Notes: generated from the sequence alone by a model not told the origin. A stretch of 64,000 bases of DNA from Patescibacteria group bacterium (GCA_028868715.1 JAGWUB010000001.1:247206-311205); one strand, 5' to 3'; positions 41,550-61,985 are shown, counted from the first letter of the stretch. Numbers and translations: made by a program.

Positions 41550-41678
41550 ATGGCAAAAAGAAGTACTACGCTTAGTCCAAAAAAGAAATCTCGACGTTCT
41601 CATAAAACCAAGAAGCGACTAGCTATAAAAAAGACAATGCTAGCTAGTAAGTCTAAAAATAAAAAGAGAAGAGCTTAA
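41550..41678 (+). CDS. rpmH: 42-aa highly basic protein, probably ribosomal protein bL34. It is absent from the ORF track because it is under 60 aa.
   Basis: MAKRSTTLSPKKKSRRSHKTKKRLAIKKTMLASKSKNKKRRA aligns to bL34 ([42 protein letters not shown]), including the RSH motif. It has its own promoter-like TCTATAAT and is followed by a terminator. Confidence 0.55.
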   Translation: MAKRSTTLSPKKKSRRSHKTKKRLAIKKTMLASKSKNKKRRA

Positions 41679-41692
41679 AAAGTTTTAATCAC

Positions 41693-41722
41693 AAAAAAGG
41701 CGAGGAAATCTCGCCTTTTTTG
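41693..41722 (+). terminator. rho-independent terminator
   Basis: AAAAAAGGCGAG-GAAAT-CTCGCCTTTTTT. Confidence 0.8.
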
Positions 41723-41731
41723 TATGATTAT

Positions 41732-41748: not shown

Positions 41749-44379
41749 ATGAATTGGTTAAAACACATTTTTGCGAAAAGTAAAAAAGATGATGAGTTAA
41801 CCCAATCTCTCAAAAAAAGTCTTTTTGAAAAATTATATAAATTTGCAAAAAATGACCCAAATTTTTCGTTTAATGAATTAAACTCTAGAGAACAAGGGCT
41901 TGATGATGGGGAAGTACAGAAAAGATTAAAAATCTATGGCTCCAATGATATAGCTGATGAAAAAAAGACTAATCACTTTCTAAAATTGCTTGAAATCATA
42001 AAAAGCCCCTTGAATTTATTACTGTCGGCTCTAGCGCTAGTTTCTCTCTTTGTCGGCGACAAGGAATCCTTTACGGTCATTATAGTCATGGTTCTGTTGA
42101 GTATTTTTTTGAATTTTTACCAAGAAACAAAAGCAGCCATAGCCGCCGATAAACTAAAATCAATAATCCACACCAAGACCACAGTTATTCGGAATAATGT
42201 CAAACAGGAAATTCTTTTGAGAAATGTTGTTCCTGGGGATGTTGTTTATTTGTATTCAGGCACCATTATTCCTGGGGACGTTAGATTAATCTCATCCAAA
42301 GATTTATTTATTAATCAAGCCATGCTTACGGGTGAGTCTTTGCCAGTTGAAAAGCATGTAATAGATTCCAACTTAGACGAAAAAGGAGTAATAGAGTTTT
42401 GTAACTTATGTTTTTTAGGCACCAGCGTTGAGTCTGGAGTAGCTACAGCCCTCGTGTTAAATACCGGGAAGAATACTTATTTAGGAAGTGTGGCTTCTGA
42501 CATTAATAAAAATGACCATGTTTCTGATTTCAATACTGAATTAAAGAAGTTTGTTTTATTGATTTTGAAATTTATGGCCGTTATGGTGCCAGCTGTTTTT
42601 TTATTGAATGGAATTTTCAAAGGGAACTGGTTTGAAGCATTTTTGTTTGCTATTGCGGTAGCTGTCGGAGTTGCCCCAGAGATGATTCCAACCATCGTGG
42701 CTGTAAATTTATCAAAAGGAGCCATGGTTTTATCTAAAAATAAAGTTATCGTCAAACACTTAGATGCCATAGAAAACTTGGGAGTAATGGATATCTTATG
42801 CACCGACAAGACAGGAACACTTACCGAAGGTACGGTTGTTTTAGAAAAGCACTTAGATATTTATGGAAAAGATAGCGTCGAATCCCTACATTACGCATTT
42901 CTCAATAGTTATTTTCAAACTGGCGTAAAAAACATTATAAATGAAGCAATTTTGAAACACGATGAAGCTAAGGAAAAATTGGAAATAAACAATTATGTAA
43001 AAATAGATGAAATTCCGTTTGATTTCAATAGAAGGAAAATGTCTGTCATCGTTTCAGACACCAAAAGCAATAAATCTCTATTGGTTTGCACGGGAGCAGT
43101 AGAGGAAATTATTGCTTCTTGCGAAAGTGTTTTGATTGATGGAAAAATAATTTCCTTAAAAGATTTTACTGATGAGAAAAAAATACTAATTGAAGAAGAA
43201 TTAAACAAAGAAGGTTTTCGAGTGACAGCCGTAGCCTACAAAGAGACTGATTCAGCCAAAAAAGTTTTTTCAACTGACGATGAAGACAAATTGACCCTTG
43301 TCGGCTTTTTAGCCTTTTTTGATCCGCCAAAGCCAAGCGTCATTGAGACTATAAAAGATTTAAAAGAATTGGGCGTAAGTGTAAAAATTTTAACAGGAGA
43401 CAATGAAATAGTAACTAGAAAAATATGTGAAGAAGTTGGTATCGTGGTGGAAAAAATATTACTCGGCAAAGACATTGAAAAATTAAGTGATGAGGAGCTA
43501 AATAAAGAAGTAGAAGAGGTGGTGGTCTATGCCAAGCTGTCTCCATACGACAAAGAAAGAATAATTAAAAGTCTCCGTTCCCAAAATCATGTGGTAGGAT
43601 TTCTAGGTGATGGTATCAATGATTCTCTTTCACTGATCGCCGCTGACGTCGGCATATCGGTCGATACAGCGGCAGACATAGCTAAAGAATCATCTGATTT
43701 GATTTTATTAGAAAAAAGTTTACTGGTTCTCAAAGAAGGAATAAAAGAAGGCAGAAGGATATTTGACAATATAATTAAATACATAAAAATGGCCGCCAGC
43801 TCTAACTTTGGAAATATGTTTAGCGTAGTTGGTGGAAGTATTTTCTTGCCCTTCTTGCCAATGTTGCCGATCCAGATACTTACCAACAACATGCTTTATG
43901 ATTTTTCTCAAATGACCATTCCTACCGACAATGTGGATGAGGAGCGTCTAGTAAAACCTAAAAAATGGGATTTTAAACATATTAAGAGATTTATATTGTT
44001 TTTCGGCCCGATCAGTTCGCTGTTTGACTATGCGACATTTTTTGTAATGATCTTTATATTTCATGCATGGGGTAACCCAGCACTTTTCCACACCGGCTGG
44101 TTTGTGGAATCTCTCCTGACCCAGACTTTTATTGTGCATATTATTAGAACCAGCAAAATCCCATTCTTCCAAAGCTGGGCCAGCTGGCCACTTATAACCT
44201 CTACTTTATGTGTAATTTTAGTGGGGCTTTATTTGCCATTTTCCCCATTTGCCAAAGCCTTTCAATTCTTACCTTTGCCACCGCTTTATTTTGCCCTATT
44301 GTTTATTGGGTTAATATTATACTTCCTGATTACCCAGTTCTTGAAAGTATGGTTTATTAAAAAATATGAGTGGATATAG
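41749..44379 (+). CDS. mgtA: Mg2+-importing P-type ATPase (type IIIB, MgtA/MgtB-like)
   Basis: Motifs CTDKTGTLTEG, TGDN, GDGINDS and ten TM helices. 876 aa. Confidence 0.85.
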   Translation: MNWLKHIFAKSKKDDELTQSLKKSLFEKLYKFAKNDPNFSFNELNSREQGLDDGEVQKRLKIYGSNDIADEKKTNHFLKLLEIIKSPLNLLLSALALVSLFVGDKESFTVIIVMVLLSIFLNFYQETKAAIAADKLKSIIHTKTTVIRNNVKQEILLRNVVPGDVVYLYSGTIIPGDVRLISSKDLFINQAMLTGESLPVEKHVIDSNLDEKGVIEFCNLCFLGTSVESGVATALVLNTGKNTYLGSVASDINKNDHVSDFNTELKKFVLLILKFMAVMVPAVFLLNGIFKGNWFEAFLFAIAVAVGVAPEMIPTIVAVNLSKGAMVLSKNKVIVKHLDAIENLGVMDILCTDKTGTLTEGTVVLEKHLDIYGKDSVESLHYAFLNSYFQTGVKNIINEAILKHDEAKEKLEINNYVKIDEIPFDFNRRKMSVIVSDTKSNKSLLVCTGAVEEIIASCESVLIDGKIISLKDFTDEKKILIEEELNKEGFRVTAVAYKETDSAKKVFSTDDEDKLTLVGFLAFFDPPKPSVIETIKDLKELGVSVKILTGDNEIVTRKICEEVGIVVEKILLGKDIEKLSDEELNKEVEEVVVYAKLSPYDKERIIKSLRSQNHVVGFLGDGINDSLSLIAADVGISVDTAADIAKESSDLILLEKSLLVLKEGIKEGRRIFDNIIKYIKMAASSNFGNMFSVVGGSIFLPFLPMLPIQILTNNMLYDFSQMTIPTDNVDEERLVKPKKWDFKHIKRFILFFGPISSLFDYATFFVMIFIFHAWGNPALFHTGWFVESLLTQTFIVHIIRTSKIPFFQSWASWPLITSTLCVILVGLYLPFSPFAKAFQFLPLPPLYFALLFIGLILYFLITQFLKVWFIKKYEWI

Positions 44380-44409: not shown

Positions 44410-44874
44410 ATGAAAAAGAAGTTGCCATCAAAAAAAGCGAAGAAAGTGGTGATGGTTAGTGGGGGATTTGACCCAATTCATATTGGGCACGTGCGCATGT
44501 TTCAGGAGGCAAAAAAACTAGGCGATGAACTTGTCGTAGTTATAAATAATGACCACTGGCTAAGATTAAAAAAGGGTTACGTTTTCATGGGAGAAAATGA
44601 ACGCAAAGAAATCATCGAAGCATTTGATTTTGTCGATAAAGTTATCTTAAGCAGTCATAAAAAAAATACAAAAGATATAAGTATTTGCAAAGATTTATTA
44701 ATTGTCCGACCACACATTTTTGCCAAGGGTGGTGATCGGCATTCAGGCAACATTCCCGAAGTTGCAGTTTGCGAAGAGATAGGCTGTTTGATAGTAAACG
44801 ATGTTGGTTTCGGCGGTAAAGTTCAAAGTTCGTCGGATTTAGTAAAAAAAGCAAAATTAAAAACAAAAAAATAA
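44410..44874 (+). CDS. cytidylyltransferase-like nucleotidyltransferase (RfaE domain II / TagD-like HxGH family)
   Basis: SGGFDPIHIGHVRMFQEAKKLGDELVVVINND. Confidence 0.7.
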   Translation: MKKKLPSKKAKKVVMVSGGFDPIHIGHVRMFQEAKKLGDELVVVINNDHWLRLKKGYVFMGENERKEIIEAFDFVDKVILSSHKKNTKDISICKDLLIVRPHIFAKGGDRHSGNIPEVAVCEEIGCLIVNDVGFGGKVQSSSDLVKKAKLKTKK

Positions 44875-44875
44875 A

Positions 44876-45643
44876 ATGAAACCATTAACCCAACTCTCAA
44901 AAAAAGATTTAAGTGAAATTAAAATGATAGTTTTTGATGTTGATGGAGTGATAGTTCCAAGGGGTACTAAAATAAAACAAATTGGAAATACTACTACACT
45001 GGAAACAAAAGTAATTAATCAAAAACAAATAGAACAAATAAAAAAACTAAACAAATTAGGTTTTTTGATAAATATTAGTTCTGGCAGGGGGCTTTATATG
45101 CTACAAGAGATGTTTAGAGATATCTTGCCGTTCATAAGTCTTACCTATGAATGCGGAAGTGCTACTTGGTATAAAGGAAAAATTTATCAACATATCAATA
45201 GCTTTGAACGTACTAAAAATATTTTTCCAAAATTAAAAAAGGTGGCAATTAAAAATAGCAACGTAAAGGGATTTGAACCCAAGGAATTTATTATAACAAT
45301 ACATTGCAAGCGACCAGATAAAAAGATTGAAGCAATAGTTAAAAAAGACAAGGGTTTGGTTACCCTATGGAATGGCGAAGCTTATGATGTTTTAATTAAA
45401 AAGGATCAAACCAAAGCCTTGGGTCTTCGGCATGCAATGGAAATTTTTAAACTTAACAAGAAGAATGTTATGGCCATAGGAGATAATTATAATGACCATG
45501 AATTGCTACAAGAAAGCGGAATACCGATATCTGCCGACAAAAGCAGGGTAAAAGGGAAGTTCTATGTTCCATTAAAAGGTAAATTTCTTCCAGCTGACGA
45601 ATTAATGCAAAAAATTCTGGCACTTAAGGGCGTTAAAAGTTAA
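44876..45643 (+). CDS. HAD-superfamily hydrolase (IIB/Cof-like sugar-phosphate phosphatase type)
   Basis: Motif I FDVDGV. Motif IV GDNYND. Confidence 0.65.
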   Translation: MKPLTQLSKKDLSEIKMIVFDVDGVIVPRGTKIKQIGNTTTLETKVINQKQIEQIKKLNKLGFLINISSGRGLYMLQEMFRDILPFISLTYECGSATWYKGKIYQHINSFERTKNIFPKLKKVAIKNSNVKGFEPKEFIITIHCKRPDKKIEAIVKKDKGLVTLWNGEAYDVLIKKDQTKALGLRHAMEIFKLNKKNVMAIGDNYNDHELLQESGIPISADKSRVKGKFYVPLKGKFLPADELMQKILALKGVKS

Positions 45644-45679
45644 TTGGTTAAAATAGTATTTAATTGTATAATATAAAAT

Positions 45680-46030
45680 ATGCAAGAATTTAAAGTATTT
45701 CAGGAGGAAAGACCATGGGGTAATTTCAGACAATTTACTCACAATACTCTTTCAACTGTAAAAATTCTTACGCTGAAGCCAAACCAAGCATTAAGCCTGC
45801 AAAGCCATGCTAAACGTTCAGAATTTTGCAGAATAATTAGTGGTAGTGGTATTATAGAAATAGGGGATAACAAGTATAATGTAAAGGAGGGCGACGAATA
45901 CAATATTCCCATAAACACCAAACATCGAGTTAGCGCTGGGGCATTAGGGGTTTCTTATTTGGAGATAAGTATTGGAGATTTTGAGGAGAATGATGAAGTT
46001 CGTTACGAAGATCAATATGGCCGCGCCTAA
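45680..46030 (+). CDS. cupin protein resembling the type II phosphomannose isomerase / ManC C-terminal cupin
   Basis: SLQSHAKRSEFCRIISGSG...HR...EISIGDFEENDEVRYEDQYGR. The terminal E-D-D-I-x-R-x-E-D-x-YGR-like signature is present. Confidence 0.65.
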   Translation: MQEFKVFQEERPWGNFRQFTHNTLSTVKILTLKPNQALSLQSHAKRSEFCRIISGSGIIEIGDNKYNVKEGDEYNIPINTKHRVSAGALGVSYLEISIGDFEENDEVRYEDQYGRA

Positions 46031-47222
46031 GAAAAAAACAATAAAAAAACCTGTCCGCAAGACCAAGAAAGTAAAACCCGTTAAGAAAAAAACAGTAGTA
46101 AAAAGAACTACTAAAAAAGTTGCTAAGAAAATACTAAAAAAGCCAATTAGCAGGAAGAAAAAAATTATTCCCCTTATTAAAAAGTTTAAGGGTAACCCAA
46201 TAGTAGGGCCGACCCACAATTCATTCTGGGAAGGGCAGGCAGTTTTCAATCCAGCAGCGATAGTGCACGATGGACGAGTGCATCTTTTTTATCGCGCGTT
46301 GGGGCATGATGGCATATCACGCTTGGGGTATGCTTCAAGCAAAGATGGCATTCATTTTGATGAGCGACTTCCTTATCCTGTTTATGTTGCTGAAAATAAA
46401 ATAGAAGCAGAAAGTCATTATCCATATACTTCACCCGCACGACTTGTTTATGATACGACCCTATATGCCTCTGGTGGTGGATGGGGAGGTTGTGAAGATC
46501 CGAGAGCAGTAAAAATTGAAGGACGTATATACATGACCTTCAACATGTTCAATGGCTGGGAATCCATGCGAGTAGCATTTACTTCTATCGACGAAAAAGA
46601 TTTGTCTCTCAAAAAATGGGATTGGAGTAAGTTTAGTTATCTTTCTCGCCCCGGTGATAGACAAAAAAATTGGGTTTTGTTCCCTGAAAAATTTAATGGG
46701 AAATTTGCTCTTTTCCACAACCTAGACAAAGGAGATCCCCATAAGGTACATATTGCCTTTTTAAATAAGCTTGATATGAAAGAAACGCCCTCCATGAAAG
46801 ACGCTCCAGATCCACATACTTTACCTGATCATATAGTCAAATGGCACAATCGCACACGTAGCGCTGCAGCACCGCCAATAAAGACGAAATATGGTTGGTT
46901 GTTGTTTTACCATGCAATGGACAAAGATGATCCTGGTCGCTATAAATTAGGGGCACTCTTGCTTGATCTCAAGGATCCTACCAAGGTTCTTTATCGATCT
47001 TCACGTCCAGTGCTTGAGCCAAATGAATGGTATGAAAATGACTGGAAGCCGGGAATAATTTATGCGAGCGGAGCGGTCGTGAAGGGAGAAACACTTTTTC
47101 TTTACTATGGTGGCGGTGATAAACATATTGCTGTGGCATCTGTAAATTTAGACGAATTTCTCCGTAAATTAAGAAGCAATGGAAACGCAGTTTTTTCAAA
47201 AAAATCTGTTGTCACTATATAA
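46017..47222 (+). CDS. GH130-family glycoside hydrolase/phosphorylase (beta-mannoside-active family) with a Lys-rich N-terminal tail
   Basis: AVFNPAAIVHDGRVHLFYRALG, GGCEDPRAVKIEGRIYMTFN and WHNRTRSAAAPPIKTKYGWLLFYH. The N-terminal 60 aa are KKP-rich. Confidence 0.75.
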   Translation: MAAPKKKTIKKPVRKTKKVKPVKKKTVVKRTTKKVAKKILKKPISRKKKIIPLIKKFKGNPIVGPTHNSFWEGQAVFNPAAIVHDGRVHLFYRALGHDGISRLGYASSKDGIHFDERLPYPVYVAENKIEAESHYPYTSPARLVYDTTLYASGGGWGGCEDPRAVKIEGRIYMTFNMFNGWESMRVAFTSIDEKDLSLKKWDWSKFSYLSRPGDRQKNWVLFPEKFNGKFALFHNLDKGDPHKVHIAFLNKLDMKETPSMKDAPDPHTLPDHIVKWHNRTRSAAAPPIKTKYGWLLFYHAMDKDDPGRYKLGALLLDLKDPTKVLYRSSRPVLEPNEWYENDWKPGIIYASGAVVKGETLFLYYGGGDKHIAVASVNLDEFLRKLRSNGNAVFSKKSVVTI

Positions 47223-47226
47223 TCTC

Positions 47227-49158
47227 ATGTTTGTTGTAAAAAGATCTCACCACAATCCAATTCTTGTTCCAGATAAAGACCATTACTGGGAGTCTTTTGC
47301 TACGTTTAATATGAGTGTTGTTAAAAAGGGTAAAACTTTTTATGGAGTTTATCGTGCAATTTCAGCCGAAGATGAATTACGTACACCTAAGCGAGTTTCA
47401 ATAATAGGCGTTGGGAAAAGTAAAGATGGTATAGATTTTGAAGACCGAGTTCCACTCATTACCCCAGAAAAAGAATGGGAAAAGTATGGTTGTGAAGATC
47501 CCCGCGTTACTTTTTTTGAAGGAAAATACTATATATTCTATACAGCACTCTCGCATTATCCATTTGACGCCGATGGAATTAAGGTTGCCGTAGCAATAAC
47601 TGATGATTTTAAAAAAATCAAAGAACGTCATTTGGTAACTCCGTTCAATGCCAAAGCTATGTCTCTTTTTCCGGAACGTATCAATGGCAAGGTGACTGTA
47701 ATTGTGGCGATCCATACAGATATGCCTCCAGTGAAAATTGCAGTTGTGCAAGTCGATGAGATAGAGCAATTATGGGACCCAGATTTTTGGAAAGAATGGT
47801 ATAAAGACATAGACAAACACTCCATTGATTTAAAAAGATCTCAGTATGACCACATTGAAGTCGGTGCTTCTCCGGTTAAAACTAAAAGTGGGTGGCTTTT
47901 GGTATACTCACATATCCAGAATTATTTTTCTTCTCCTCGAAATTTGGATCGAATCTTTGGAATTGAAGCCGTGTTGTTGGATTTTGCTAATCCCTTGAAT
48001 ATCTTGGGGCGTACGAATGGCCCAATGCTAGTACCCAGTGAGCCCTATGAACTTTTTGGATACATGAGTAATATTATTTTTCCTTCTAGCGCAATCTTAG
48101 AAAAGAATAAATTGTCTATATATTATGGCGCCACCGATACGACAGTTTGTATGGCTCACGTAAATATAGATGATCTTGTTTCCACAATGCGTACAGAGAC
48201 TAAGGCATCATGGCATTTTGAGCGCTCTGAACTGAACCCCATTATCTCTCCTATTAAGGAAAATCCATGGGAAGCAAAGGCAACTTTTAACCCCGCGGCT
48301 ATTAGGATAGGAGATACAACTCATATATTATATAGGGCACTTTCAGAGGACAATACTTCCTCTATTGGGTATGCATCGTCAAAAGATGGACTACAGATTG
48401 ATGAAAGATTTTCAGAACCTATATATGTCCCAACAGAGAAATTTGAATTAAAAAAAGTTAATGGAGTAAATTCTGGCTGTGAAGATCCACGGTTAACTAA
48501 AATAGGCACGAATATTTATATGTGTTATACAGCATTTGATGGGATTGGCCCACCACGAGTAGCCATTACCTCAATTACAGAGAAAAATTTTTTAAAAAAG
48601 AACTGGCAATGGACAAAACCGATTGTAATTACCCCGGAAGGATTTGACGACAAGGACACCTGTATTTTTCCAGAAAAAGTGAATGGTCAGTATTTTATTC
48701 TGCATCGTGTTGGTGGAGAGATGTGTGGAGATTATTTTAAATCACTTAATTTTAGCACTCAAAAAGTTAAAAAATGTATCAGAATTATTGGTCCTAGAAT
48801 AAATACTTGGGACAGTCTGAGGGTCGGCATATCGGCGCCACCACTAAAGACAAAATACGGTTGGTTACTTTTATATCACGGTATTTCTAAAAGCAGTAAT
48901 ACTTATCGTATCGGGGCAGTACTTTTGGATCTCAATGATCCTGCTATTGTTCTCTCTCGTACTACTGACCCGATATTTGAACCAGAAAAACCATATGAAA
49001 AATCTGGAATTATAAATAACGTTGTTTTTCCATGTGGGATGACCGAGCAGAACGGTGTGCTGTATATTTATTACGGTGGAGCCGATACAGTCGTAGGAGT
49101 TGCTACGATGGAGCTTGATATTATTCTGAAAGCCCTTACCCGAGACATTAAAAAATAA
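47227..49158 (+). CDS. tandem double-GH130-domain protein
   Basis: Two complete GH130-like repeats: HNPILVP...GCEDPRVTFFEGKYYIFYT and ELNPIISP...ATFNPAAIRIGDTTHILYRALS...GCEDPRLTKIGTNIYMCYT. Confidence 0.75.
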   Translation: MFVVKRSHHNPILVPDKDHYWESFATFNMSVVKKGKTFYGVYRAISAEDELRTPKRVSIIGVGKSKDGIDFEDRVPLITPEKEWEKYGCEDPRVTFFEGKYYIFYTALSHYPFDADGIKVAVAITDDFKKIKERHLVTPFNAKAMSLFPERINGKVTVIVAIHTDMPPVKIAVVQVDEIEQLWDPDFWKEWYKDIDKHSIDLKRSQYDHIEVGASPVKTKSGWLLVYSHIQNYFSSPRNLDRIFGIEAVLLDFANPLNILGRTNGPMLVPSEPYELFGYMSNIIFPSSAILEKNKLSIYYGATDTTVCMAHVNIDDLVSTMRTETKASWHFERSELNPIISPIKENPWEAKATFNPAAIRIGDTTHILYRALSEDNTSSIGYASSKDGLQIDERFSEPIYVPTEKFELKKVNGVNSGCEDPRLTKIGTNIYMCYTAFDGIGPPRVAITSITEKNFLKKNWQWTKPIVITPEGFDDKDTCIFPEKVNGQYFILHRVGGEMCGDYFKSLNFSTQKVKKCIRIIGPRINTWDSLRVGISAPPLKTKYGWLLLYHGISKSSNTYRIGAVLLDLNDPAIVLSRTTDPIFEPEKPYEKSGIINNVVFPCGMTEQNGVLYIYYGGADTVVGVATMELDIILKALTRDIKK

Positions 49159-49815: not shown

Positions 49816-50214
49816 ATGCGAATAAATTTACAAGGCAAAAATATTGAGTTAACGGAGCCTATCAAAGATTATGTTTTAAAGAGAGTAACTAACTTGGAAA
49901 AATTACTTTCTGGGATTGAAAAAGGGGGAGGGGAAGTAGCAGTCACGTTTGAAGTTGGTAAAAGCACCAAGCATCACAAAGGAACTTCTATTTTTAATGC
50001 TTATTGTTTAATCAATACCAATGGCGAAGAATTTTATTCTAGCGCTGATGAGGAGGATTTATATACCGCGATTGATATAGTTAAAGAAAATCTCTTTAGG
50101 GAAATAAATAAAAACAAAGATCGTAAAAAGACATTGTTTAAACGAGGAGCCATGAGCGTCAAAAAAATGCTCAAAGGTCTTTCCAAGCGAAATCCTTTTA
50201 CTTCTAAGTACTAA
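49816..50214 (+). CDS. hpf: ribosome hibernation-promoting factor / RaiA family
   Basis: MRINLQGKNIELTEPIKDYVLKRVTNLEKLL...EDLYTAIDIVKENLFREINKNKDRKK. Confidence 0.85.
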   Translation: MRINLQGKNIELTEPIKDYVLKRVTNLEKLLSGIEKGGGEVAVTFEVGKSTKHHKGTSIFNAYCLINTNGEEFYSSADEEDLYTAIDIVKENLFREINKNKDRKKTLFKRGAMSVKKMLKGLSKRNPFTSKY

Positions 50215-51107
50215 TTTTTATAATCCATTTCTTTACCTCCCTCGGGGATAATTTTTTCTATAATGAATTGGTTATTTTCTAATTTTGCTTTAGTAATTAT
50301 TATTCTTTTTCCATCCTTAAAGAAGTAAGTTCTAGGCCAAGTGGCATAGGCACGAAATTTATTGTAATTTTTAACCGAGTCGTCAGAAAGATCTATTAAC
50401 CCATCTTCTTTTTTTATTTTAGTACAATAAGTTGCTTTTGTTTCATCTTGTCGAGTTGTTTTAATTGTTCCAGCTATAAATTCCGGTAGAGTTTTTACCA
50501 GAAGCTCACCTCCAAGTTTTATCAATCGCTTGCGAAGTTCTGGGGATTTTTCATCTGGCATTATTTCTGTCTTATCTATAGCAATGATTGGCCCGGAATC
50601 CATTTTGAATTCCATTTGTTGAATAGTTACCCCCGTCTCTGTGTCGCCATTTAAAATAGCAGATTCCACCGGTGAAGCTCCGCGATATTTAGGAAGCAAA
50701 GAATAGTGAAGGTTTATAGAGCCTAGCTTTGGTAGCTTCAGTATATTTTCTGGAATTATTTTTCCGTAAGCTACGACTAAGAAGAGCTCGGGGATATTTT
50801 TGCTTACACGCATATCCTGCTGGTGCAGGATTGCTTTTCTCGGCTCGTCAGCCTGCGAAGAGATCGCAAAAATATCCCCGAGCTCTTCTTTGAGTTTCTC
50901 TGGTTGTATGTATGGAATATTATTTTCCATAGCCCAAACCTTGGCTGGTGGGGGAGTAATGACCATTTTACGCCCCTGTGGGCGGTCAGGAGCAGTTACA
51001 ATAAGACTAGGTATATATCCAGCACTCTTTAGTATTTCCAAAGTCTCACTGGCCACATCTGGAGTACCCCAAAATACAAAATTTAACTTTTTACTATTAT
51101 CTTGCAT
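50211..51107 (-). CDS. fmt: methionyl-tRNA formyltransferase with a short in-frame repeat-derived insertion
   Basis: NFVFWGTPDVASETL and SINLHYSLLPKYRGASPVESAILNGDTETGVTIQ. Confidence 0.9.
   Translation of the reverse strand: MQDNSKKLNFVFWGTPDVASETLEILKSAGYIPSLIVTAPDRPQGRKMVITPPPAKVWAMENNIPYIQPEKLKEELGDIFAISSQADEPRKAILHQQDMRVSKNIPELFLVVAYGKIIPENILKLPKLGSINLHYSLLPKYRGASPVESAILNGDTETGVTIQQMEFKMDSGPIIAIDKTEIMPDEKSPELRKRLIKLGGELLVKTLPEFIAGTIKTTRQDETKATYCTKIKKEDGLIDLSDDSVKNYNKFRAYATWPRTYFFKDGKRIIITKAKLENNQFIIEKIIPEGGKEMDYKN
50800..50880. repeat. degenerate copy of the GC-rich palindromic element, inserted in frame in fmt
   Basis: TCTCGGCTCGTCAGCCTGCGAAGAGA matches the 25-nt core of the def element at 21/22 positions. 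An adjacent palindrome is ATCCTGCTGGTGCAGGAT. It encodes ..SSQADEPRKAILHQQD.. in fmt. Confidence 0.6.
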
Positions 51108-51111
51108 ATTA

Positions 51112-51693
51112 TTACTTAGGAAGTTCTTCTTTCACCTCCTTGGCATGGTCTATAAACAGTATGCCATTTAGGTGGTCGGTTTCGTGTTGGAAAATTTGAG
51201 CGAGCAAACCAGATGCTCCGCGAGTAAATTTTTTACCGTTTTCATCGTAAGCGGTGACAGTGGCTTTTTTTGATCTATTAACTTTTCCATAAAGCCAGCG
51301 GACAGAAAGGCACCCCTCTGGCAACCATTCCTTTTCACGCGAAAGTTTGGAAATTTTTGGATTGATAAACACCATATCTTTCTCCGCAGACTTTCTCAGA
51401 GCGGGGTCGCTATCTGTGCGTGCTCGCACAGCGCTCCCTCTCGGCTCGTCAACCTGCGAGAGACCCCGCCTTGAGAAGTCTGCTCCGAAAATTTTTCCTG
51501 ATACAACAAAAATTCTCAGGCTGTAACCAATCTGTGGAGCAGCTATGGCTACACCATCATGCTGGCTAGAGAGGGCCACAGACATCTCTTTTAATATCTT
51601 TTTTATTTTCGTAGTTTTAATATCTGGCAAAAGTACCTCTTTGGCAACTTTCCGCAAAGTCTTCTCTTTTTGTTGAAGAATTTTTTTTGGCAT
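51112..51693 (-). CDS. def: peptide deformylase carrying a 32-aa in-frame insertion between motifs 1 and 2
   Basis: Motif 1 GVAIAAPQIG, motif 2 EGCLS and motif 3 QHETDHLNG are present. The motif 1 to motif 2 spacing is about twice the usual. Confidence 0.9.
   Translation of the reverse strand: MPKKILQQKEKTLRKVAKEVLLPDIKTTKIKKILKEMSVALSSQHDGVAIAAPQIGYSLRIFVVSGKIFGADFSRRGLSQVDEPRGSAVRARTDSDPALRKSAEKDMVFINPKISKLSREKEWLPEGCLSVRWLYGKVNRSKKATVTAYDENGKKFTRGASGLLAQIFQHETDHLNGILFIDHAKEVKEELPK
51387..51482. repeat. 96-nt GC-rich MITE/RPE-like element with 22-bp terminal inverted repeats, inserted in frame in def
   Basis: CAGACTTTCTCAGAGCGGGGTC ... GACCCCGCCTTGAGAAGTCTG. An internal palindrome is GTGCGTGCTCGCAC. 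The core is TCTCGGCTCGTCAACCTGCGAGAGA. Length is 32 codons. Confidence 0.7.
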
Positions 51694-51700
51694 CCCAGTT

Positions 51701-53017
51701 TTAAAGCTCTTTTAAATAATCCAGAAGCTTATTTAATTTTACAGTATCTTGAGATCGATTGCCCATGTTTCTGACAATTACCGAATTGTCCAAAGCCTCC
51801 TTTACTCCAAAGATTATAGCGTAGGGGATAGCTAGCTTCTCGGCAATTGCGAGCTGGCTACCCAAGCTGTCCTTAGAGAGCGCTTGAGCTATAGGGACGT
51901 GGGCTTTTCTTAGTATTTCTATTATATTTAAACTTTTCAACTTTGCTTCCGAGCCCAACTGGATGAAATAAATTTTTGGTTTCTTTAATATGCGTGGTGA
52001 AAGTTTTTTATACCAAGGTGATGATACGATTCTGTCTACTCCAATAGAAAACCCCACAGCTGGAACATCACGCTTTGCACCAATTTGTCGGGCTAAATAA
52101 TCATAACGTCCGCCACCAGCGAGTGCCAATGGGGCACTACCTTCTTCTACTCCAGTTTCTATGACCTCAAAGACAGTACGGGTGTAGTAAGAAAGTCCAC
52201 GTACTAAATTTTTATTTATATTATATTGGATCTTCATTTCTTCTAAATACTCCAAAACTTCCTTGAAATGTTTCTTGCAAGAAGGGCAAAGAAATGAGAT
52301 AGAGTCCGGGGCTCGCTCATTGATCTCCTTCGTCTTTTCTTCTTTAGAGTCTAGGATGCGCAGGGGATTTATTTTTAAACGCTCTCTATCTATGGCCGGC
52401 AAGCTGCTTAAATTTTTTTTATAGAAGCTTGTAAGTTCTTTTATATAGGCACCTCTGCATTCTTTGTCACCAATGGAATTTATATCAATTGACAAGTTAG
52501 ATGCCCCAGCTTCTTCTAAGATACTCATACAAGTCTTTATGACTATCGCATCCATGATACTTTTTTCACTCCCAAGCGCGTCCACATCAAATTGCCAAAA
52601 TTGCCTATATCGTCCGCGTTGAGGTTTGTCATGTCTAAAAACTGGACCATAGTGGTAAAGCATCACTGGCTGAGGCATGCTCTGCATTCCGTGTTCGATA
52701 TAAGCGCGCATAACCGGCGCGGTGTGTTCTGGTAAAAGAGCCAAATGATCTCCACTCTTGGTTTTAAGAGTGTACATTTCCTTGTCTATAATGTCTGTGC
52801 CTTCACCAATACTAGATGTAAAAATTTCTTCATCTTCAATTATGTGGGTGGAGATTGGCTTGAAACCGTAATATACTGCCACCTCTTGAGCCTTTTCAAA
52901 AAACCCCTGAAAAGAATAATACTCTTCGTTCATTAAATCTCGCATCCCCTTAGGTGAAGTTATTTCCTTATTTTTATTTTTAACTTTCTTAACTTCGAGG
53001 TGTTTTATTTTTTTCAT
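51701..53017 (-). CDS. hisS: histidyl-tRNA synthetase
   Basis: Class II motifs and the HisRS signature YHYGPVFRHDKPQRGRYRQFWQFDVDALG. Confidence 0.9.
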   Translation of the reverse strand: MKKIKHLEVKKVKNKNKEITSPKGMRDLMNEEYYSFQGFFEKAQEVAVYYGFKPISTHIIEDEEIFTSSIGEGTDIIDKEMYTLKTKSGDHLALLPEHTAPVMRAYIEHGMQSMPQPVMLYHYGPVFRHDKPQRGRYRQFWQFDVDALGSEKSIMDAIVIKTCMSILEEAGASNLSIDINSIGDKECRGAYIKELTSFYKKNLSSLPAIDRERLKINPLRILDSKEEKTKEINERAPDSISFLCPSCKKHFKEVLEYLEEMKIQYNINKNLVRGLSYYTRTVFEVIETGVEEGSAPLALAGGGRYDYLARQIGAKRDVPAVGFSIGVDRIVSSPWYKKLSPRILKKPKIYFIQLGSEAKLKSLNIIEILRKAHVPIAQALSKDSLGSQLAIAEKLAIPYAIIFGVKEALDNSVIVRNMGNRSQDTVKLNKLLDYLKEL

Positions 53018-53022
53018 ATCTT

Positions 53023-53583
53023 TTATTCTGTTGGTTTATATTGACCTGGCATTACACTAATGTCAGTTAGTGGCAATAAACGCAAGAAGGCTTTTCCAAT
53101 TAAAAGATTACTTTTTACCGCACCCCAAAATCTAGAGTCGGAGCTGGCATTTCTGTTGTCACCCATCACAAAGTACTCATCACTCTTTAATACAAAGTGC
53201 GTATTATTATCTGATGGATCTTTTACGAAAGGCTCGTTAAGCTGGAAACCGTCTTTATGTTGGGCGTTGGTTATAGTTATGACACTACCCTTTATGTCTA
53301 CAGTTTCATTTGGTAGGCCAATTATTCTTTTAATAAAAAATTTAGTTTGATCATTAGGATATCTGAACACAACTACATCATCTCGTTTTGGACTTCCAAG
53401 TTCGTATGAAACCTTATCTACGATAAGATAGTCTCCATTCTTGAAAGTAGGGAACATAGAACTGCCTGATACTACGAATGGCTCTATGACATAGACGCGT
53501 ATCGGAATTACTATAATTAATGCAATGATTATAAAACGTACTAGCTCCCAAAACGACTGCTTTAGTGTTTTTTGTTGTTCCAT
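53023..53583 (-). CDS. lepB: signal peptidase I (S26)
   Basis: GSSMFPTF (Ser), KRIIGLPNE (Lys) and MGDNRNASSDSRFWG boxes. Confidence 0.85.
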   Translation of the reverse strand: MEQQKTLKQSFWELVRFIIIALIIVIPIRVYVIEPFVVSGSSMFPTFKNGDYLIVDKVSYELGSPKRDDVVVFRYPNDQTKFFIKRIIGLPNETVDIKGSVITITNAQHKDGFQLNEPFVKDPSDNNTHFVLKSDEYFVMGDNRNASSDSRFWGAVKSNLLIGKAFLRLLPLTDISVMPGQYKPTE

Positions 53584-58822: not shown

Positions 58823-59299
58823 ATGAAAATTTATATTGGTACAGATCATGCAGGGTATGTATTAAAAGAAAAAATTTTGACTTCCTTGAGAGCTCAAGGT
58901 TATGAGGTTATAGATAAAGGTGCCTTTGAATACAACGAAGGAGATGATTACCCAGATTTTGTGGTGCCAGTGGCAAAAGAAGTTTCTATCGATCCGGACA
59001 ATGTTAAGGGAATTATCTTGGGCGCTACCGGTGAAGGTGAAGCTATCACGGCTAACAGGTTTCCTCACGTTCGGGCGGTGGCCTATTATGGAGAATCAAA
59101 ATGTGTGGTGGATGATCACGCTGATATTATCATACGTTCCAGAGAGCACAACAATACAAATGTTTTATCACTAGGAGCTAGATACCTCACTGAAGAAAAT
59201 GTGATGGATGTAGTAAATCTTTGGCTCAATACTCCTTTTAGTAATGGTGAAAGACATATACGTCGTTTAGGTAAGATAGATCAAATTGTTTTGAAATAA
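58823..59299 (+). CDS. rpiB: ribose-5-phosphate isomerase B (RpiB/LacAB family)
   Basis: MKIYIGTDHAGYVLKEKI...GILGATGEGEAITANR. Confidence 0.8.
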   Translation: MKIYIGTDHAGYVLKEKILTSLRAQGYEVIDKGAFEYNEGDDYPDFVVPVAKEVSIDPDNVKGIILGATGEGEAITANRFPHVRAVAYYGESKCVVDDHADIIIRSREHNNTNVLSLGARYLTEENVMDVVNLWLNTPFSNGERHIRRLGKIDQIVLK

Positions 59300-59304
59300 A
59301 ATTC

Positions 59305-59997
59305 ATGGCTGAAATAATTCCGGCAATATTGTCAAAAAATTATGAAGATTTAAAAAATAAAATCTCACTAGTAAGAGGTATCGTTCCGATTGTGCAAATA
59401 GATATCTGCGACGGAATTTTTGTAAAAGCAACTACTTGGCCTTTTGAAACCAAATCACTAGACGAACATTTTACTAGAATTCAAAACGAACAAGAAGGGT
59501 TACCTTTTTGGGAAGATATTGATTTTGAGCTTGATTTGATGGTTCATGACGCAGTTTCCAATTTTGATGTTTACACCAAGCTTGGCCCAAGAAGAATAAT
59601 TTTTCATATCGAGGCTGTTGGCAATTTAGAAGAATTCAAACATTTTCTAGAAGGAATAGAGACTTACACTAGGGACATAATAGAAATCGGCGTGGCCATT
59701 AATCCCAGCACAGACATTGCACAAATTTTTCCACTAGTGAATTGTATTGATTTTGTGCAATGTATGGGCATTGAACATATCGGTTTACAAGGTGAAGGTT
59801 TCAGTGAGCAATGCTTGGAACAAATAAAAAAACTAAAAGAGAAATCTTCAGACCTAGTAGTTTCAGTTGACGGGGGAGTAAATTCAGCCTCGGCGCCAAA
59901 AATAATTGATGCTGGAGCTGATCGTCTGGTAATTGGCTCAGCAATTTTCAATACAGATGATATACTAGAAACAGTGGAGCAATTCAAGAATCTATAA
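59305..59997 (+). CDS. rpe: ribulose-phosphate 3-epimerase family protein
   Basis: IIPAILS, VQIDICDGIFV, MGIEHIGLQGEGF and VDGGVN. Confidence 0.65.
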   Translation: MAEIIPAILSKNYEDLKNKISLVRGIVPIVQIDICDGIFVKATTWPFETKSLDEHFTRIQNEQEGLPFWEDIDFELDLMVHDAVSNFDVYTKLGPRRIIFHIEAVGNLEEFKHFLEGIETYTRDIIEIGVAINPSTDIAQIFPLVNCIDFVQCMGIEHIGLQGEGFSEQCLEQIKKLKEKSSDLVVSVDGGVNSASAPKIIDAGADRLVIGSAIFNTDDILETVEQFKNL

Positions 59998-60002
59998 TTT
60001 TT

Positions 60003-60869
60003 ATGGCGTTTTTATCTGACAAAAAAATAAAAGAGTTGGAAATTACAGCGAACGATATTCGTAAGAGTATTATTGAAATGTTAGTGGAAGCGGGCAGTGG
60101 GCATACCGCTGGCCCACTTGGCATGGCAGATATTTTTACACTTTTTTATTTTCATATTTTAAAACATGATCCCAAGAATCCATTCTGGGAAGAACGCGAT
60201 AGGTTGGTGCTTAGCAACGGGCACATTTGTCCGGTATTTTACGCGACAATGGCCTACGCCGGATATTTTCCAAAGGAAGAATTAAAAACTTTACGTAAAT
60301 TAGGCACTCGACTCCAAGGTCACCCCCACAGAGAATATATGCCTTGGCTAGAAAATAGTTCTGGACCTCTCGGCGCTGGACTTTCACAGGCTGTCGGCAT
60401 GGCACTCGCTGATAAAATAGACAAAAAAGACAAAGACAGATTTATTTATTGTTTTATGTCTGATGGCGAGCTAGATGAAGGAAATTCTTGGGAGGCCATT
60501 ATGCTTGCTGGGAAAAATAAAGTGCGAAATTTAATCGCAGTTGTTGACCGAAACAACATTCAGATTGATGGTTTTACTGAAGATATAATACCACTTGAAC
60601 CACTGGCTGATAAATGGCGAGCTTTCAATTGGCACGTGATAGAAGTTTCGGGTCATGATTTTATGGCCTTAAACGAAGCAGTAGTAGAAGCACAAGCGGT
60701 GTATGAAAAGCCGACGGTTATTATCGCCCACACTATTCCTGGTAAAGGCGTGCACGAATTTGAGAGAGACTTTAGATGGCATGGTAAACCACCAAACAAA
60801 GAAGAAGCTAAAATGGCTTTGAATGAATTGCGGACTCTTGGCGGTAAGATAAAAAGCGAACATCAATAA
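60003..60869 (+). CDS. tkt: transketolase, N-terminal (TPP-binding) subunit
   Basis: GSGHTAGPLGMADI and GHxxP-like region. Split-gene form. Confidence 0.85.
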   Translation: MAFLSDKKIKELEITANDIRKSIIEMLVEAGSGHTAGPLGMADIFTLFYFHILKHDPKNPFWEERDRLVLSNGHICPVFYATMAYAGYFPKEELKTLRKLGTRLQGHPHREYMPWLENSSGPLGAGLSQAVGMALADKIDKKDKDRFIYCFMSDGELDEGNSWEAIMLAGKNKVRNLIAVVDRNNIQIDGFTEDIIPLEPLADKWRAFNWHVIEVSGHDFMALNEAVVEAQAVYEKPTVIIAHTIPGKGVHEFERDFRWHGKPPNKEEAKMALNELRTLGGKIKSEHQ

Positions 60870-60875
60870 AAATAT

Positions 60876-61886
60876 ATGTTAAATCCAGATTTAAAATTAA
60901 ATCCAAAAATTTTCAATGACGATGTCGCGCAAGCACCGATCCGAAAAGGCTTCGGGGAGGGGTTAGTTTTAGCTGGGGATCAGGATAAAAATGTAGTGGC
61001 CCTTTGCGCCGATTTGACCGAGTCCACCCAAATGATTTTTTTTAAAGAAAAGTTTCCAGAGAGATTTGTGGAAATTGGTGTGGCTGAACAAAATCTCGTT
61101 ACGGTTGCTTCTGGGATGGCAGCAATGGGCAAAATTCCTTTTTGTTCTTCTTATGCGATGTTTTCTCCGGGGAGAAATTGGGAACAAATCAGGACAACCA
61201 TAGCTTACAACGACCGACCGGTAAAAATAATTGGTTCACATGCGGGTATTTCTGTCGGACCGGATGGTGGCACACATCAAGCCCTGGAAGACATTGCTCT
61301 CATGCGCGTGGTACCAAACATGGAAGTCATTTCTCCTTGTGATTCAATTGAAGCCAAAAAAGCAACTCAAGCAATTACCAAAACTGGCAAACCAGCATAT
61401 TTACGACTAGCTAGAGAGAAAACTCCCATAGTCACCACAGAAGAAACTCCATTTACGCTTGGCAAGGCCGAAGTTTATTGGATGCCAGATGTGGGCATTC
61501 CTCAGGTAGGAATAATAGTAACTGGTGGGTTGATGCATCGGGCCCTACTCGCTGCTAAAGAATTACAAGACCAAGAGGAGCCACAGCGAATTAAAACAAA
61601 AGTAATGAATCTTTCATGCATCAAGCCGATAGATGTGAAAGCTATTGTGGCTTTAGCAAAAGAATGTAAAGCAATCGTAACTGTGGAGGAGCATCAAGTT
61701 GCTGGTGGAATGGGATCGGTAGTAGCAGAGGTACTCTCGCAAAATTTTCCGGTGCCGATGGAATTTGTCGGCGTGCAAGATAAGTTTGGGCAAAGCGGTA
61801 CACCAGACGAACTCATAGAACATTATGGTATGGGAAAAAATTCTATCAAAGAAGCGGTGAGGAAAGTGCTAAAACGAAAAATCTAG
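60876..61886 (+). CDS. tkt: transketolase, C-terminal (pyrimidine-binding) subunit
   Basis: FVEIGVAEQNLVTVASGMAAMG...SHAGISVGPDGGTHQALEDIALMR. Confidence 0.85.
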   Translation: MLNPDLKLNPKIFNDDVAQAPIRKGFGEGLVLAGDQDKNVVALCADLTESTQMIFFKEKFPERFVEIGVAEQNLVTVASGMAAMGKIPFCSSYAMFSPGRNWEQIRTTIAYNDRPVKIIGSHAGISVGPDGGTHQALEDIALMRVVPNMEVISPCDSIEAKKATQAITKTGKPAYLRLAREKTPIVTTEETPFTLGKAEVYWMPDVGIPQVGIIVTGGLMHRALLAAKELQDQEEPQRIKTKVMNLSCIKPIDVKAIVALAKECKAIVTVEEHQVAGGMGSVVAEVLSQNFPVPMEFVGVQDKFGQSGTPDELIEHYGMGKNSIKEAVRKVLKRKI

Positions 61887-61985
61887 GAAAGAGTTTTTAT
61901 AAAGCAATCTATCTGGCGTTGCTACGCCAGCGAACCTGCTCGGGCCGACGCCCTTGCGCAAGACTTTCTAAAAACTCTTTCCTAG
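61884..61985. mobile_element. 102-nt GC-rich MITE-like palindromic element between convergent tkt and pfkB. It has perfect 17-bp terminal inverted repeats.
   Basis: CTAGGAAAGAGTTTTTA ... TAAAAACTCTTTCCTAG. Internal hairpins are CTGGCG-TTGCTA-CGCCAG and GGGC-CGAC-GCCC. The two CTAG ends supply the TAG stop codons of both flanking genes. Confidence 0.65.

Follow-up and report, generated by a model that had tools for sequence, protein, structure and literature searches.

Five co-directional genes of a Patescibacteria group bacterium (plus strand, positions 44410-49158 of the 64,000-nucleotide stretch of DNA analysed here, termed the window) probably form a module that joins central sugar-phosphate metabolism to cytoplasmic β-1,2-mannosides and that could operate in either direction. 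They are predicted to encode a nucleotidyltransferase (NT), a HAD-IIB protein, a stand-alone cupin and two proteins that together contain three GH130 domains, of which one (GH130-C) resembles a phosphorylase and two (GH130-A and GH130-B) would be non-phosphorolytic paralogues. The sequence-only reading had counted six genes; the interval carries five, and the features described were otherwise all found in place, with profile matches for each gene. The direction of the cluster is shared by MgtA (41749-44379) upstream and by a membrane protein and HPF downstream. GH130-A probably starts at ATG 46017 (MAAPKKK...) and not at 45972, the start of the longest ORF, and the tandem protein at ATG 47227 (MFVVKRSHHNPIL...) and not at 47179; these starts are preferred because the homologues begin there.

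The last gene encodes GH130-B (47227-48201, plus strand) and GH130-C (48202-49158, plus strand) in one polypeptide. PF04041 matches it in two stretches (320.1 bits, E=1.7e-95, cut-off 26), and AlphaFold2 predicted two propellers (pLDDT 93.4, pTM 0.89), the top Foldseek match of the model being 9fj8 (TMt 0.89), in agreement with a five-bladed propeller fold. An artefact in which a frameshift or two separate genes simulate a tandem protein is ruled out by the continuous ORF, by more than 120 full-length homologues (640-664 aa, 73-81% identical) and by the two-propeller model, and the double GH130 fusion noted from the sequence is real. GH130-A (128.7 bits, E=3e-37) also lies above the PF04041 cut-off, so that the assignment to GH130 holds for all three domains. 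By sequence they are old paralogues, with pairwise identities of 27% (A-B), 38% (A-C) and 30% (B-C). Neither protein reaches the curated cut-off of 450 of NCBIfam NF052550, the β-1,2-mannobiose phosphorylase equivalog: GH130-A scores 195.7 and the tandem protein 421.3, summed over its two domains. A signal peptide is not visible on either protein.

The domains were classified by published residue criteria (PMC7660257, PMC4599007, PMC12814180). An E/K pair at the positions of UhgbMP Y103 and R150, whose relation to the β-1,2 linkage is a published correlation (PMC7660257, PMC4599007), is invariant in GH130-A, GH130-B and GH130-C. The signature residues point to β-1,2-mannosides, and Teth514_1788 and Teth514_1789 are the closest relatives; no evidence was found for mannosyl-glycerate, which had been considered as a substrate. 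The combination expected of a phosphorylase, the Arg168/His231 pair and a third basic residue, occurs in GH130-C, is incomplete in GH130-A and is missing from GH130-B. GH130-C, identified by Foldseek and by its signature residues, is 41% identical to Teth514_1788 and agrees with Teth514_1788/1789 at every published mechanism and linkage position. Its six signature positions (D, E/K, Arg, Lys/Arg, His) show no exception among 101 sequences, the phosphate site included (R, H and K/R, each 101/101).

GH130-B, which matches PDB 9fj8 with E=1e-36, retains Asp91, Glu90 and Lys143, and the proton-donor Asp is present in 111/111 sequences. Its positions were set by hhalign against the canonical family and by the invariants over a diverse set. 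None of the 111 sequences has the phosphate-binding Arg or the third basic residue, and the position of H231 is never occupied by His. The phosphate-ligand segments contain two carboxylates, D165 (110/111) and E211 (111/111), which fall in the segments of E227 and E268 of BT3780, with a column match made uncertain by indels near Arg168 and the third basic position. The signature of GH130-B is hydrolase-like. Domains of this type also occur as stand-alone proteins (P0136-P0138, P0143, P0145). In GH130-A (catalytic domain 46194-47222, plus strand; PDB 9fj8 match E=1e-44) the proton-donor Asp at the position of UhgbMP D104 is kept in 86/86 orthologues. The position of the phosphate-binding Arg (UhgbMP R168) is Asn in the window and S/N/A/G/T in all 86, never R or K. 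His231 is kept in the window and in 80 of the 86 orthologues, and an invariant Arg is located one residue past the third basic position. A conserved carboxylate of the hydrolase type was not found in the phosphate-ligand segments of GH130-A. The distinction between phosphorylases and hydrolases by phosphate-binding residues, proposed with the sequence-only reading, thus succeeds for GH130-C, which is phosphorylase-type; GH130-A and GH130-B fit neither published class cleanly.

GH130-A is preceded by a polybasic tail (46017-46193, plus strand), recognised by its residue composition, with 47% K+R and no D or E. The lysine-rich tail described previously is present on GH130-A, with a length of 59 rather than 60 aa and at the N-terminus. 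Such a segment occurs in only 2 of the 64 ORFs of the window. Of 91 orthologues, 59 have a polybasic tail at this position, about 8 have a transmembrane helix instead, and about 19 carry an additional GH130-like domain there. Since the helix replaces the tail in about 8 lineages, membrane tethering suits the tail better than the histone-H1-like, nucleic-acid-binding character once ascribed to it, a reading that is weakened by these orthologues. The positive charges that follow the helix predict that the catalytic domain faces the cytoplasm. The tail is accordingly predicted to be a segment for membrane association or for binding of another polyanion.

The cupin (45680-46030, plus strand) is a stand-alone protein of 116 aa that matches the C-terminal isomerase domain of type II phosphomannose isomerases (PF01050, 67.3 bits versus 23.6, E=1.7e-18). 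It contains both the RPWG and the EDxYGR motif and ends in ...RYEDQYGRA, which bears out the assignment to a PMI-type-II-like cupin made from the ending EDQYGR. Its match to TIGR01479 is confined to model positions 360-467 of 467, and the guanylyltransferase domain of the bifunctional enzymes is absent. The metal motif in the window is HxK (H-A-K); most homologues have H-N-H, the usual HxH. The HAD protein (44876-45643, plus strand; 255 aa) is a Cof-type HAD-IIB protein by TIGR01484 (49.1, cut-off 41.8) and PF08282 (58.1 bits), with the sugar phosphatases 1rlm and 2hf2 as its best PDB relatives and no match to the phosphomannomutase (PMM) model PF03332 even at E<=1. The phosphatase call is upheld insofar as the protein is phosphatase-like, but the same slot is occupied in most related genomes by a phosphomannomutase-type gene, encoding either a PMM-type HAD protein (PF03332, 35 bits; 35-36 bits in L006 and L034, cut-off 22.4) or a 534-aa PGM/PMM. 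Three unrelated mutase-type genes take turns in this slot across the loci. NT (44410-44874, plus strand; 154 aa) has a cytidylyltransferase fold with an HxGH (GGFDPIHIGH) and a KGGD motif. It scores above the cut-offs of the general cytidylyltransferase-like models PF01467 (45.7 bits, cut-off 21) and TIGR00125 (53.4 bits), as expected from its description as a cytidylyl/adenylyl-transferase-like protein. The nearest models are those of heptose-1-P adenylyltransferase (RfaE domain II), where NT fails the equivalog TIGR02199 with 78.8 bits over the full length versus a cut-off of 181.5; the nearest models act on β-heptose-1-P or alcohol phosphates, not on α-Man1P. The best PDB match, 3glv (E=6e-13), belongs to a functionally mixed family.

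GH130-A and the tandem protein recur together in 117 related CPR loci, and more than 5400 homologues were found at E<=1e-10. The cluster is, judged by these sequences, a widespread and conserved core feature of ultra-small CPR bacteria of the Nomurabacteria/Paceibacteria type, and its presence in a minimal genome, which had been regarded as unexpected, is not peculiar to this one. Linkage was counted in 55 loci with full flanks (34 close-clade, 21 divergent). GH130-C follows GH130-B in 54/55 loci, and a single GH130 gene lies just 5' of the tandem in 52/55. The cupin accompanies the triad in 30 of 34 loci of the close clade and in 7 of 21 divergent ones, with varying gene orders, and cupin and phosphomannomutase-type gene stay linked to the triad despite shuffling. 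The order cupin-A-B-C-PMM is seen in L081, L083, L088, L100 and L114, and A-B-C-PMM in L107, where a cupin was not detected. In P0121 (971 aa), A, B and C are fused. A dedicated β-mannoside or mannose-phosphate pathway, as the sequence-only reading proposed, is supported because the linkage survives rearrangement and because gene fusions exist. NT accompanies the GH130 genes in 29/34 loci of the close clade and in 0/21 divergent loci; linkage of HPF is likewise limited to the close clade. The flanks also contain housekeeping genes in conserved synteny (fmt, def, hisS, pth). In a crude survey of the recurrent gene families in the 55 loci, neither a transporter for sugar uptake nor a solute-binding protein nor a secreted glycosidase was seen. 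The one transporter that recurs, an ABC protein of the exporter type (PF00664 and PF00005), is encoded directly 3' of the tandem in 10/55 loci.

The proposed route leads from Fru6P through Man6P and Man1P to β-1,2-mannosides, with a single phosphorylase among the three GH130 paralogues. The cupin would interconvert fructose-6-P and mannose-6-P, and the product of the mutase slot, elsewhere a PMM-type HAD protein or PGM/PMM, would interconvert mannose-6-P and mannose-1-P; the Cof-type HAD-IIB protein of the window may instead be a mannose-phosphate phosphatase. GH130-C, as a classical inverting GH130 phosphorylase, would catalyse β-1,2-Man(n) + Pi <-> β-1,2-Man(n-1) + α-Man1P. Since GH130-A and GH130-B have lost the phosphate site while their proton-donor Asp and their subsites for sugar persist, they are proposed not to be phosphorylases. 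GH130-B is most likely a β-1,2-mannosidase-type hydrolase beside GH130-C in the same polypeptide, a role suggested by the two invariant carboxylates at the basic positions of the phosphorylases. GH130-A would be anchored on the cytoplasmic side of the membrane by its tail or, in some lineages, by a transmembrane helix, and its most likely role is mannose transfer to, or trimming of, a β-mannoside close to the membrane. NT may convert Man1P to NDP-mannose. In this scheme the sequences show the identities of the domains, their signature residues, the linkage and fusion of the genes and the variants of the tail, whereas we infer all substrates, the roles of GH130-A, GH130-B, NT and the HAD protein, and the direction of flux. 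That the mannoside is endogenous, synthesised as a reserve or as an envelope glycan and then re-mobilised, is a plausible reading, if short of probable. Its most specific form is speculative: CPR would make and re-mobilise their own β-1,2-mannoside polymer, be it a reserve resembling mannogen or an envelope glycan linked to the membrane, by GH130-fold enzymes only, with an RfaE-II-like NT that supplies NDP-mannose, the tethered GH130-A as synthase, and GH130-B and GH130-C that degrade the polymer to Man1P, which mutase and cupin PMI return to Fru6P.

The genes could also serve purely catabolic salvage, which the sequence-only reading had named first: three GH130 enzymes that differ in preferred chain length or linkage would break down β-mannosides imported from a host or the environment, and Man1P would enter glycolysis via mutase and PMI. 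GP, PMM and PMI constitute a classical energy-saving catabolic route, established for Man1P released by GH130 phosphorolysis, and Thermoanaerobacter has two GH130 enzymes specific for different chain lengths (PMC4264767); CPR bacteria live by scavenging, and GH130-C is a canonical phosphorylase by its residues. Nevertheless, this possibility is somewhat less likely than an endogenous mannoside, since the crude survey of the 55 loci showed no recurrent importer, solute-binding protein or secreted glycosidase and only the exporter-type ABC protein, two of the three GH130 domains have no phosphate site, GH130-A is predicted to be membrane-tethered, and catabolism has no need of NT. In addition, β-1,2-mannans are rare as substrates, yet the proteins are 73-81% identical, like those of housekeeping genes.

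The loss of phosphate ligands, complete in GH130-B, might alternatively mean that GH130-A and/or GH130-B are catalytically dead and serve in carbohydrate binding or as a scaffold, for example as a pseudo-dimer partner of GH130-C, the sole enzyme. GH130 enzymes are active as dimers or hexamers, with active sites shaped by adjacent subunits (PMC12814180), and the high pTM (0.89) suggests that B and C are fixed relative to each other. Against this improbable explanation, neither the proton-donor Asp nor the E/K pair nor the other -1/+1 subsite residues vary among 86 sequences of A and 111 of B that reach down to 45% identity; D165 and E211, specific to GH130-B, are likewise invariant, and GH130-B-type domains exist as stand-alone proteins. 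It is quite improbable that the genes are adjacent by inherited clade synteny without a common pathway, NT being, for instance, a cofactor adenylyltransferase of the FAD/CoA/NAD type. The restriction of NT and HPF linkage to the close clade, the housekeeping genes in the flanks and the mixed family of 3glv agree with such an origin, but cupin, PMM and the three GH130 domains stay linked through reordering and large divergence, and fusions have occurred. Synteny can, however, account for NT alone.

The module resembles several known systems. Teth514_1788 and Teth514_1789 of Thermoanaerobacter sp. X-514 (GH130_6; 9fj8, 7fip; PMC4264767) match all three domains best in sequence and in fold, and both clusters combine several cytoplasmic GH130 paralogues with a nucleotidyltransferase that would take Man1P, a Man1P-nucleotidyltransferase in Thermoanaerobacter (PMC4264767). 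The Thermoanaerobacter enzymes are separate and both canonical phosphorylases, whereas the CPR cluster has the B-C fusion and two paralogues devoid of the phosphate site. The ABC importer, GH5, GT4 and NTP_transferase-type guanylyltransferase of Thermoanaerobacter are absent from the CPR cluster, which instead contains the cupin PMI, the mutase-slot gene and the cytidylyltransferase-fold NT. The Leishmania mannogen enzymes MTP1-7 (GT108; PMC10913872, PMC12814180) have in common with the CPR domains the five-bladed propeller, as seen in matches of the AlphaFold2 model to 6q50 and 6q4y, and the active-site logic. Their paralogues divide non-phosphorolytic and phosphorolytic action on cytoplasmic β-1,2-mannan, and loss of the phosphate-site Arg accompanies loss of phosphorylase activity (PMC10913872, PMC12814180); a comparable division is proposed for CPR. 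Identity to the MTPs is only 13-17%, and their substrate is β-1,2-mannan, which in CPR is a predicted substrate. At the switch position the MTPs that are solely glycosyltransferases have His, GH130-A has S/N/A/G, and GH130-B has T with an adjacent Asp at or near it.

The β-1,2-mannosidases BT3780 and BACOVA_03624 of Bacteroides (GH130_3; PMC4599007) have, like GH130-B, lost the basic phosphate ligands and kept the Lys associated with the β-1,2 linkage, and they possess a conserved carboxylate pair in the region of D165 and E211, where the alignment contains indels. Their identity in the structural alignment by Foldseek is only about 28%, and they are periplasmic, the characterised members of their group having signal peptides, whereas GH130-B is predicted to be cytoplasmic and is fused to a phosphorylase domain. 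Uhgb_MS, a dual glycosyltransferase/phosphorylase (GH130_4; PMC12814180), demonstrates that β-1,2-type GH130 active sites can also accept GDP-mannose. Its K184, R202 and R242 map to the three positions compared and, unlike in GH130-A and GH130-B, all three basic residues are retained. Because R202A completely abolishes its transferase activity (PMC12814180), the missing Arg of GH130-A and GH130-B is by itself no predictor of transferase activity. Two GH130 modules in one polypeptide, as in the tandem protein, were recorded in four CAZy entries in 2018, none of them characterised and each with both modules in the same sequence cluster (PMC7660257); the modules of the CPR tandem are, by contrast, 30% identical and differ in the residues that define the mechanism.

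The interval 44410-49158 holds five genes, all co-directional and spaced by -14 to +36 nt; the six counted in the sequence-only reading were one too many. The first, at 44410-44874 (+), encodes a nucleotidyltransferase of the cytidylyltransferase fold (NT; 154 aa; PF01467, 45.7 bits), whose best full-length model is rfaE domain II (78.8 bits, below the cut-off of 181.5). It is followed by the gene of a Cof-type HAD-IIB protein (44876-45643, +; 255 aa; TIGR01484, 49.1 bits against a cut-off of 41.8) and by that of a cupin (45680-46030, +; 116 aa; PF01050, E=1.7e-18), whose match to type II phosphomannose isomerases is confined to their C-terminal isomerase domain. The last two genes, also on the + strand, encode a single-domain GH130 protein, here called A (PF04041, E=3e-37), and a protein with two GH130 stretches, B-C (PF04041, E=1.7e-95), in which B is the N-terminal domain. 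Homologues indicate that A starts at ATG 46017 (MAAPKKK...) and ends at 47222, and that B-C starts at ATG 47227 (MFVVKRSHHNPIL...) and ends at 49158. MgtA upstream and a membrane protein and HPF downstream are encoded in the same direction as the cluster but are separate matters. A promoter and terminator scan yielded sites no more numerous than in shuffled sequence and, between mgtA and HPF, no + strand terminator outside coding sequence.

The proposal that two GH130 domains reside in one protein was borne out. The ORF is unbroken, the homologues are colinear, and the structure prediction that had been suggested earlier (AlphaFold2) gave a confident model of two beta-propellers with a mean pLDDT of 93.4 and a pTM of 0.89; a frameshift or two-gene origin is thereby ruled out. 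The protein database contains more than 5400 relatives at E<=1e-10, the best 120 of which, from MAGs of Nomurabacteria, Paceibacterota and other Patescibacteria, are 640-664 aa long and 73-81% identical at a query coverage of 99-100%. The structures nearest to the model are the Thermoanaerobacter beta-1,2-mannoside phosphorylases Teth514_1788 (9fj8, TMt 0.89) and Teth514_1789 (7fip); the Leishmania GT108 enzymes stand lower in the list of matches. A, B and C are old paralogues, with identities of 27% (A-B), 38% (A-C) and 30% (B-C); C is 41% identical to Teth514_1788. One homologue (P0122, 1029 aa) extends the B-C tandem by about 400 C-terminal residues with no obvious likeness to anything examined.

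In the numbering of the reference enzyme UhgbMP, the proton donor of GH130 enzymes is D104, phosphate is bound by R168, H231 and a third basic residue, hydrolases have Glu where the phosphate ligands sit (E227 and E268 of BT3780), and the Y103/R150 pair is replaced by E/K in beta-1,2 enzymes (PMC7660257, PMC4599007, PMC12814180). These positions were mapped by HMMER, MAFFT and hhalign, and the residues were counted in 86 A, 111 B and 101 C sequences drawn from 117 related loci. The Asp proton donor and the E/K pair are kept without exception in all three domains. C has Arg, Lys/Arg and His in each of the 101 sequences and, at the positions considered, does not differ from characterised beta-1,2-mannoside phosphorylases. 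The R168 position of A is never occupied by Arg or Lys (S 49, N 22, A 7, G 4, T 1 among the 86 sequences); the His is kept in 80 of them, and a near-invariant Arg lies one residue past the third basic position. B lacks all three phosphate ligands; the same two segments carry T164-D165 (D in 110/111), D208 and E211 (111/111), residues that are invariant also in a set with stand-alone B-type proteins. The sequence-only reading had left the choice between phosphorylase and hydrolase to the phosphate-binding residues, and these set C apart: since A is without the Arg and B without all three ligands, only C qualifies as a phosphorylase. B, which has no signal peptide, resembles the GH130 hydrolases in logic, with carboxylates in place of basic residues; indels block a residue-exact match. 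Judged by these residues, A fits neither the phosphorylases nor the hydrolases, and for A and B alike neither published mechanistic class fits cleanly. In GT108 enzymes and Uhgb_MS, changes at the phosphate-site Arg shift the balance between transferase and phosphorylase, with an outcome that is not predictable from sequence. A-type proteins also have an insertion of about 25 residues (window about 46440-46500), which ends in a conserved SGGGWGG just before the catalytic CEDPR and lies in the region where GH130_4 enzymes have a chain-length-limiting lid loop.

The cluster is strongly conserved in CPR/Patescibacteria. The loci compared comprise 37 from species-representative genomes and 80 more divergent ones from metagenomes; the 55 with full flanks were split into a close clade (B at least 62% identical, n=34) and a divergent set (45-62%, n=21). 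Of the 55, 54 have C after B, and 52 have a single GH130 gene as the immediate upstream neighbour. The cupin is linked in 30/34 loci of the close clade and in 7/21 of the divergent set, and the gene in the place between NT and cupin, the mutase slot, in 25/34 and 6/21 (PMM-type). NT and HPF are linked in 29/34 and 24/34 loci of the close clade, respectively, and in 0/21 divergent loci each, which rules out NT as a universal core member; its link may be clade-specific. In one divergent locus, L103, a cytidylyltransferase-like gene other than NT lies close by. Gene order in the divergent set is often altered, for example to cupin-A-B-C-PMM, A-B-C-cupin or PGM/PMM-cupin-B-C. That linkage outlasts rearrangement argues for a pathway shared by the cupin, the mutase and the GH130 triad of A and B-C. 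A is further tied functionally to B-C by P0121 (971 aa), a protein of the representative library that unites A-, B- and C-type domains in one polypeptide, in the gene order of the window and without the basic tail. In about 25 related loci the cluster is followed in the same order by HPF, fmt, def, hisS and signal peptidase, and thus sits in a conserved housekeeping neighbourhood; in the window, HPF lies at 49816-50214 (+) and genes of the - strand at 50211-53583.

Some loci depart from this arrangement. The protein upstream of B-C is itself a tandem in L023 (8024-9925), L024 (8161-9990), L025 (8099-9982) and L028 (8010-9863), so that four GH130-like domains stand in a row; its N-terminal half is degenerate (PF04041, E=7.7e-15), with the catalytic Asp missing, and is followed by a canonical phosphorylase-type GH130 domain. 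In L013 (6739-8109) cupin and A read as one 456-aa ORF, with the last 20 or so cupin residues lost, which may be a genuine fusion or an erroneous frameshift in the MAG.

The mutase slot is occupied by one of four proteins: the Cof-type HAD protein of the window, either of two PMM-type HAD proteins (PF03332, above the cut-off) or a 534-aa PGM/PMM. Such varied occupants suggest that different genes serve one function, that of a phosphomannomutase. The protein in the window is sugar-phosphatase-like, which makes the phosphomannomutase step the weakest of the module. A mannosylglycerate pathway was dropped, there being no MpgS-like gene and no other trace than a weak HAD match to models of MpgP (E about 1e-4, well short of the cut-off). 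The window cupin reads H-A-K-R-S-E where most homologues have the usual metal motif H-N-H-R-x-E (L006, L010 and L034 were compared); the HAK variant is shared with L015.

The basic segment of A is N-terminal, 59 aa long and 47% Lys+Arg, with no acidic residue. Among the 64 ORFs of the window, a 40-aa stretch with at least 40% Lys+Arg occurs in two, A and the primary sigma factor; with this as the only other case, a strongly polybasic tail is not a genome-wide habit. The sigma-70 factor (7101-8321, +; regions 1.1-4) has a Lys-rich N-terminal tail of about 50 aa with 60% K+R. Of 91 orthologues of A, 59 have a polybasic N-terminal extension and about 19 have an additional propeller-like domain in its place; in about 8 the place is taken by a helix of about 20 residues that is strongly hydrophobic. 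The genes with a transmembrane helix for the tail lie just upstream of the tandem (L079, L081, L083, L087, L088, L100, L108 and L114). Positive charge is absent before the helix and Arg/Lys follow it, an arrangement that should keep the catalytic domain in the cytoplasm. As the polybasic segment swaps with a membrane anchor, the tail is most simply explained by binding to the anionic inner face of the membrane. The histone-like, nucleic-acid-binding character read into the tail earlier is down-weighted in view of the transmembrane helices and extra domains that replace it at the same position; the tail may yet bind nucleic acid or another polyanion.

In the proposed module, Fru6P, Man6P and Man1P would be joined to cytoplasmic beta-1,2-mannosides; C would act as the phosphorylase, B as a hydrolase-like partner in the same polypeptide, and A as a membrane-proximal, non-phosphorolytic paralogue. 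C, the mutase and PMI are fully compatible with the salvage of foreign mannan by a classical catabolic route, which would indicate a specific host-derived nutrient. We lean slightly to an endogenous glycan, reserve or envelope, because, in a crude survey of 55 loci, the gene families that recur near the triad included no importer, binding protein or secreted glycosidase and just one transporter, an exporter-type ABC protein (PF00664 + PF00005) whose gene is the next one downstream of the tandem gene in 10 of the loci, and because the cluster is conserved at housekeeping level, A is predicted to be membrane-tethered and NT is present. The ABC protein is found, for example, at 10040-11818 in L057 and in nine further loci; nine of the 11 copies are on the same strand. 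If the glycan is endogenous, CPR bacteria would have a mannogen-like reserve or a beta-mannosylated envelope component, and glycoenzymology would gain two new GH130 activities. CPR/Patescibacteria account for much of the diversity of bacteria, and little of their carbon and envelope metabolism has been worked out.

Among known systems the Thermoanaerobacter cluster comes closest; in it, Man1P from two canonical GH130 phosphorylases goes to a guanylyltransferase (PMC4264767). For paralogues that divide the labour, the nearest parallel is the mannogen metabolism of Leishmania (PMC10913872). GH130-GH130 fusions recorded in CAZy are uncharacterised and have modules that are alike (PMC7660257). The present cluster combines one textbook beta-1,2-mannoside phosphorylase, C, with two other GH130 types, B fused to C and A predicted to be membrane-tethered, whose active sites have apparently not been described previously. 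Among the papers searched, none connects GH130, mannoside phosphorylases or mannogen to CPR, except for one on a Microgenomates genome that merely counts two GH130 genes.

Upstream of mgtA, an unannotated small ORF at 41552-41680 (+) encodes an extremely basic product of 42 aa (MAKRSTTLSPKKKSRRSHKTKKRLAIKKTMLASKSKNKKRRA), which could be a small ribosomal-type protein. A terminator-like hairpin with a 15-bp stem (41691-41723) lies 3' of it, followed by a TGnTATAAT-like -10 element that closely precedes mgtA; an Rfam search of the mgtA leader returned nothing above chance. A pentose-phosphate block at 58823-62983 comprises an RpiB-like gene, a ribulose-phosphate epimerase-like gene and a transketolase split in two genes, and is adjoined on the - strand by a PfkB-family sugar kinase, the one call based on Pfam.
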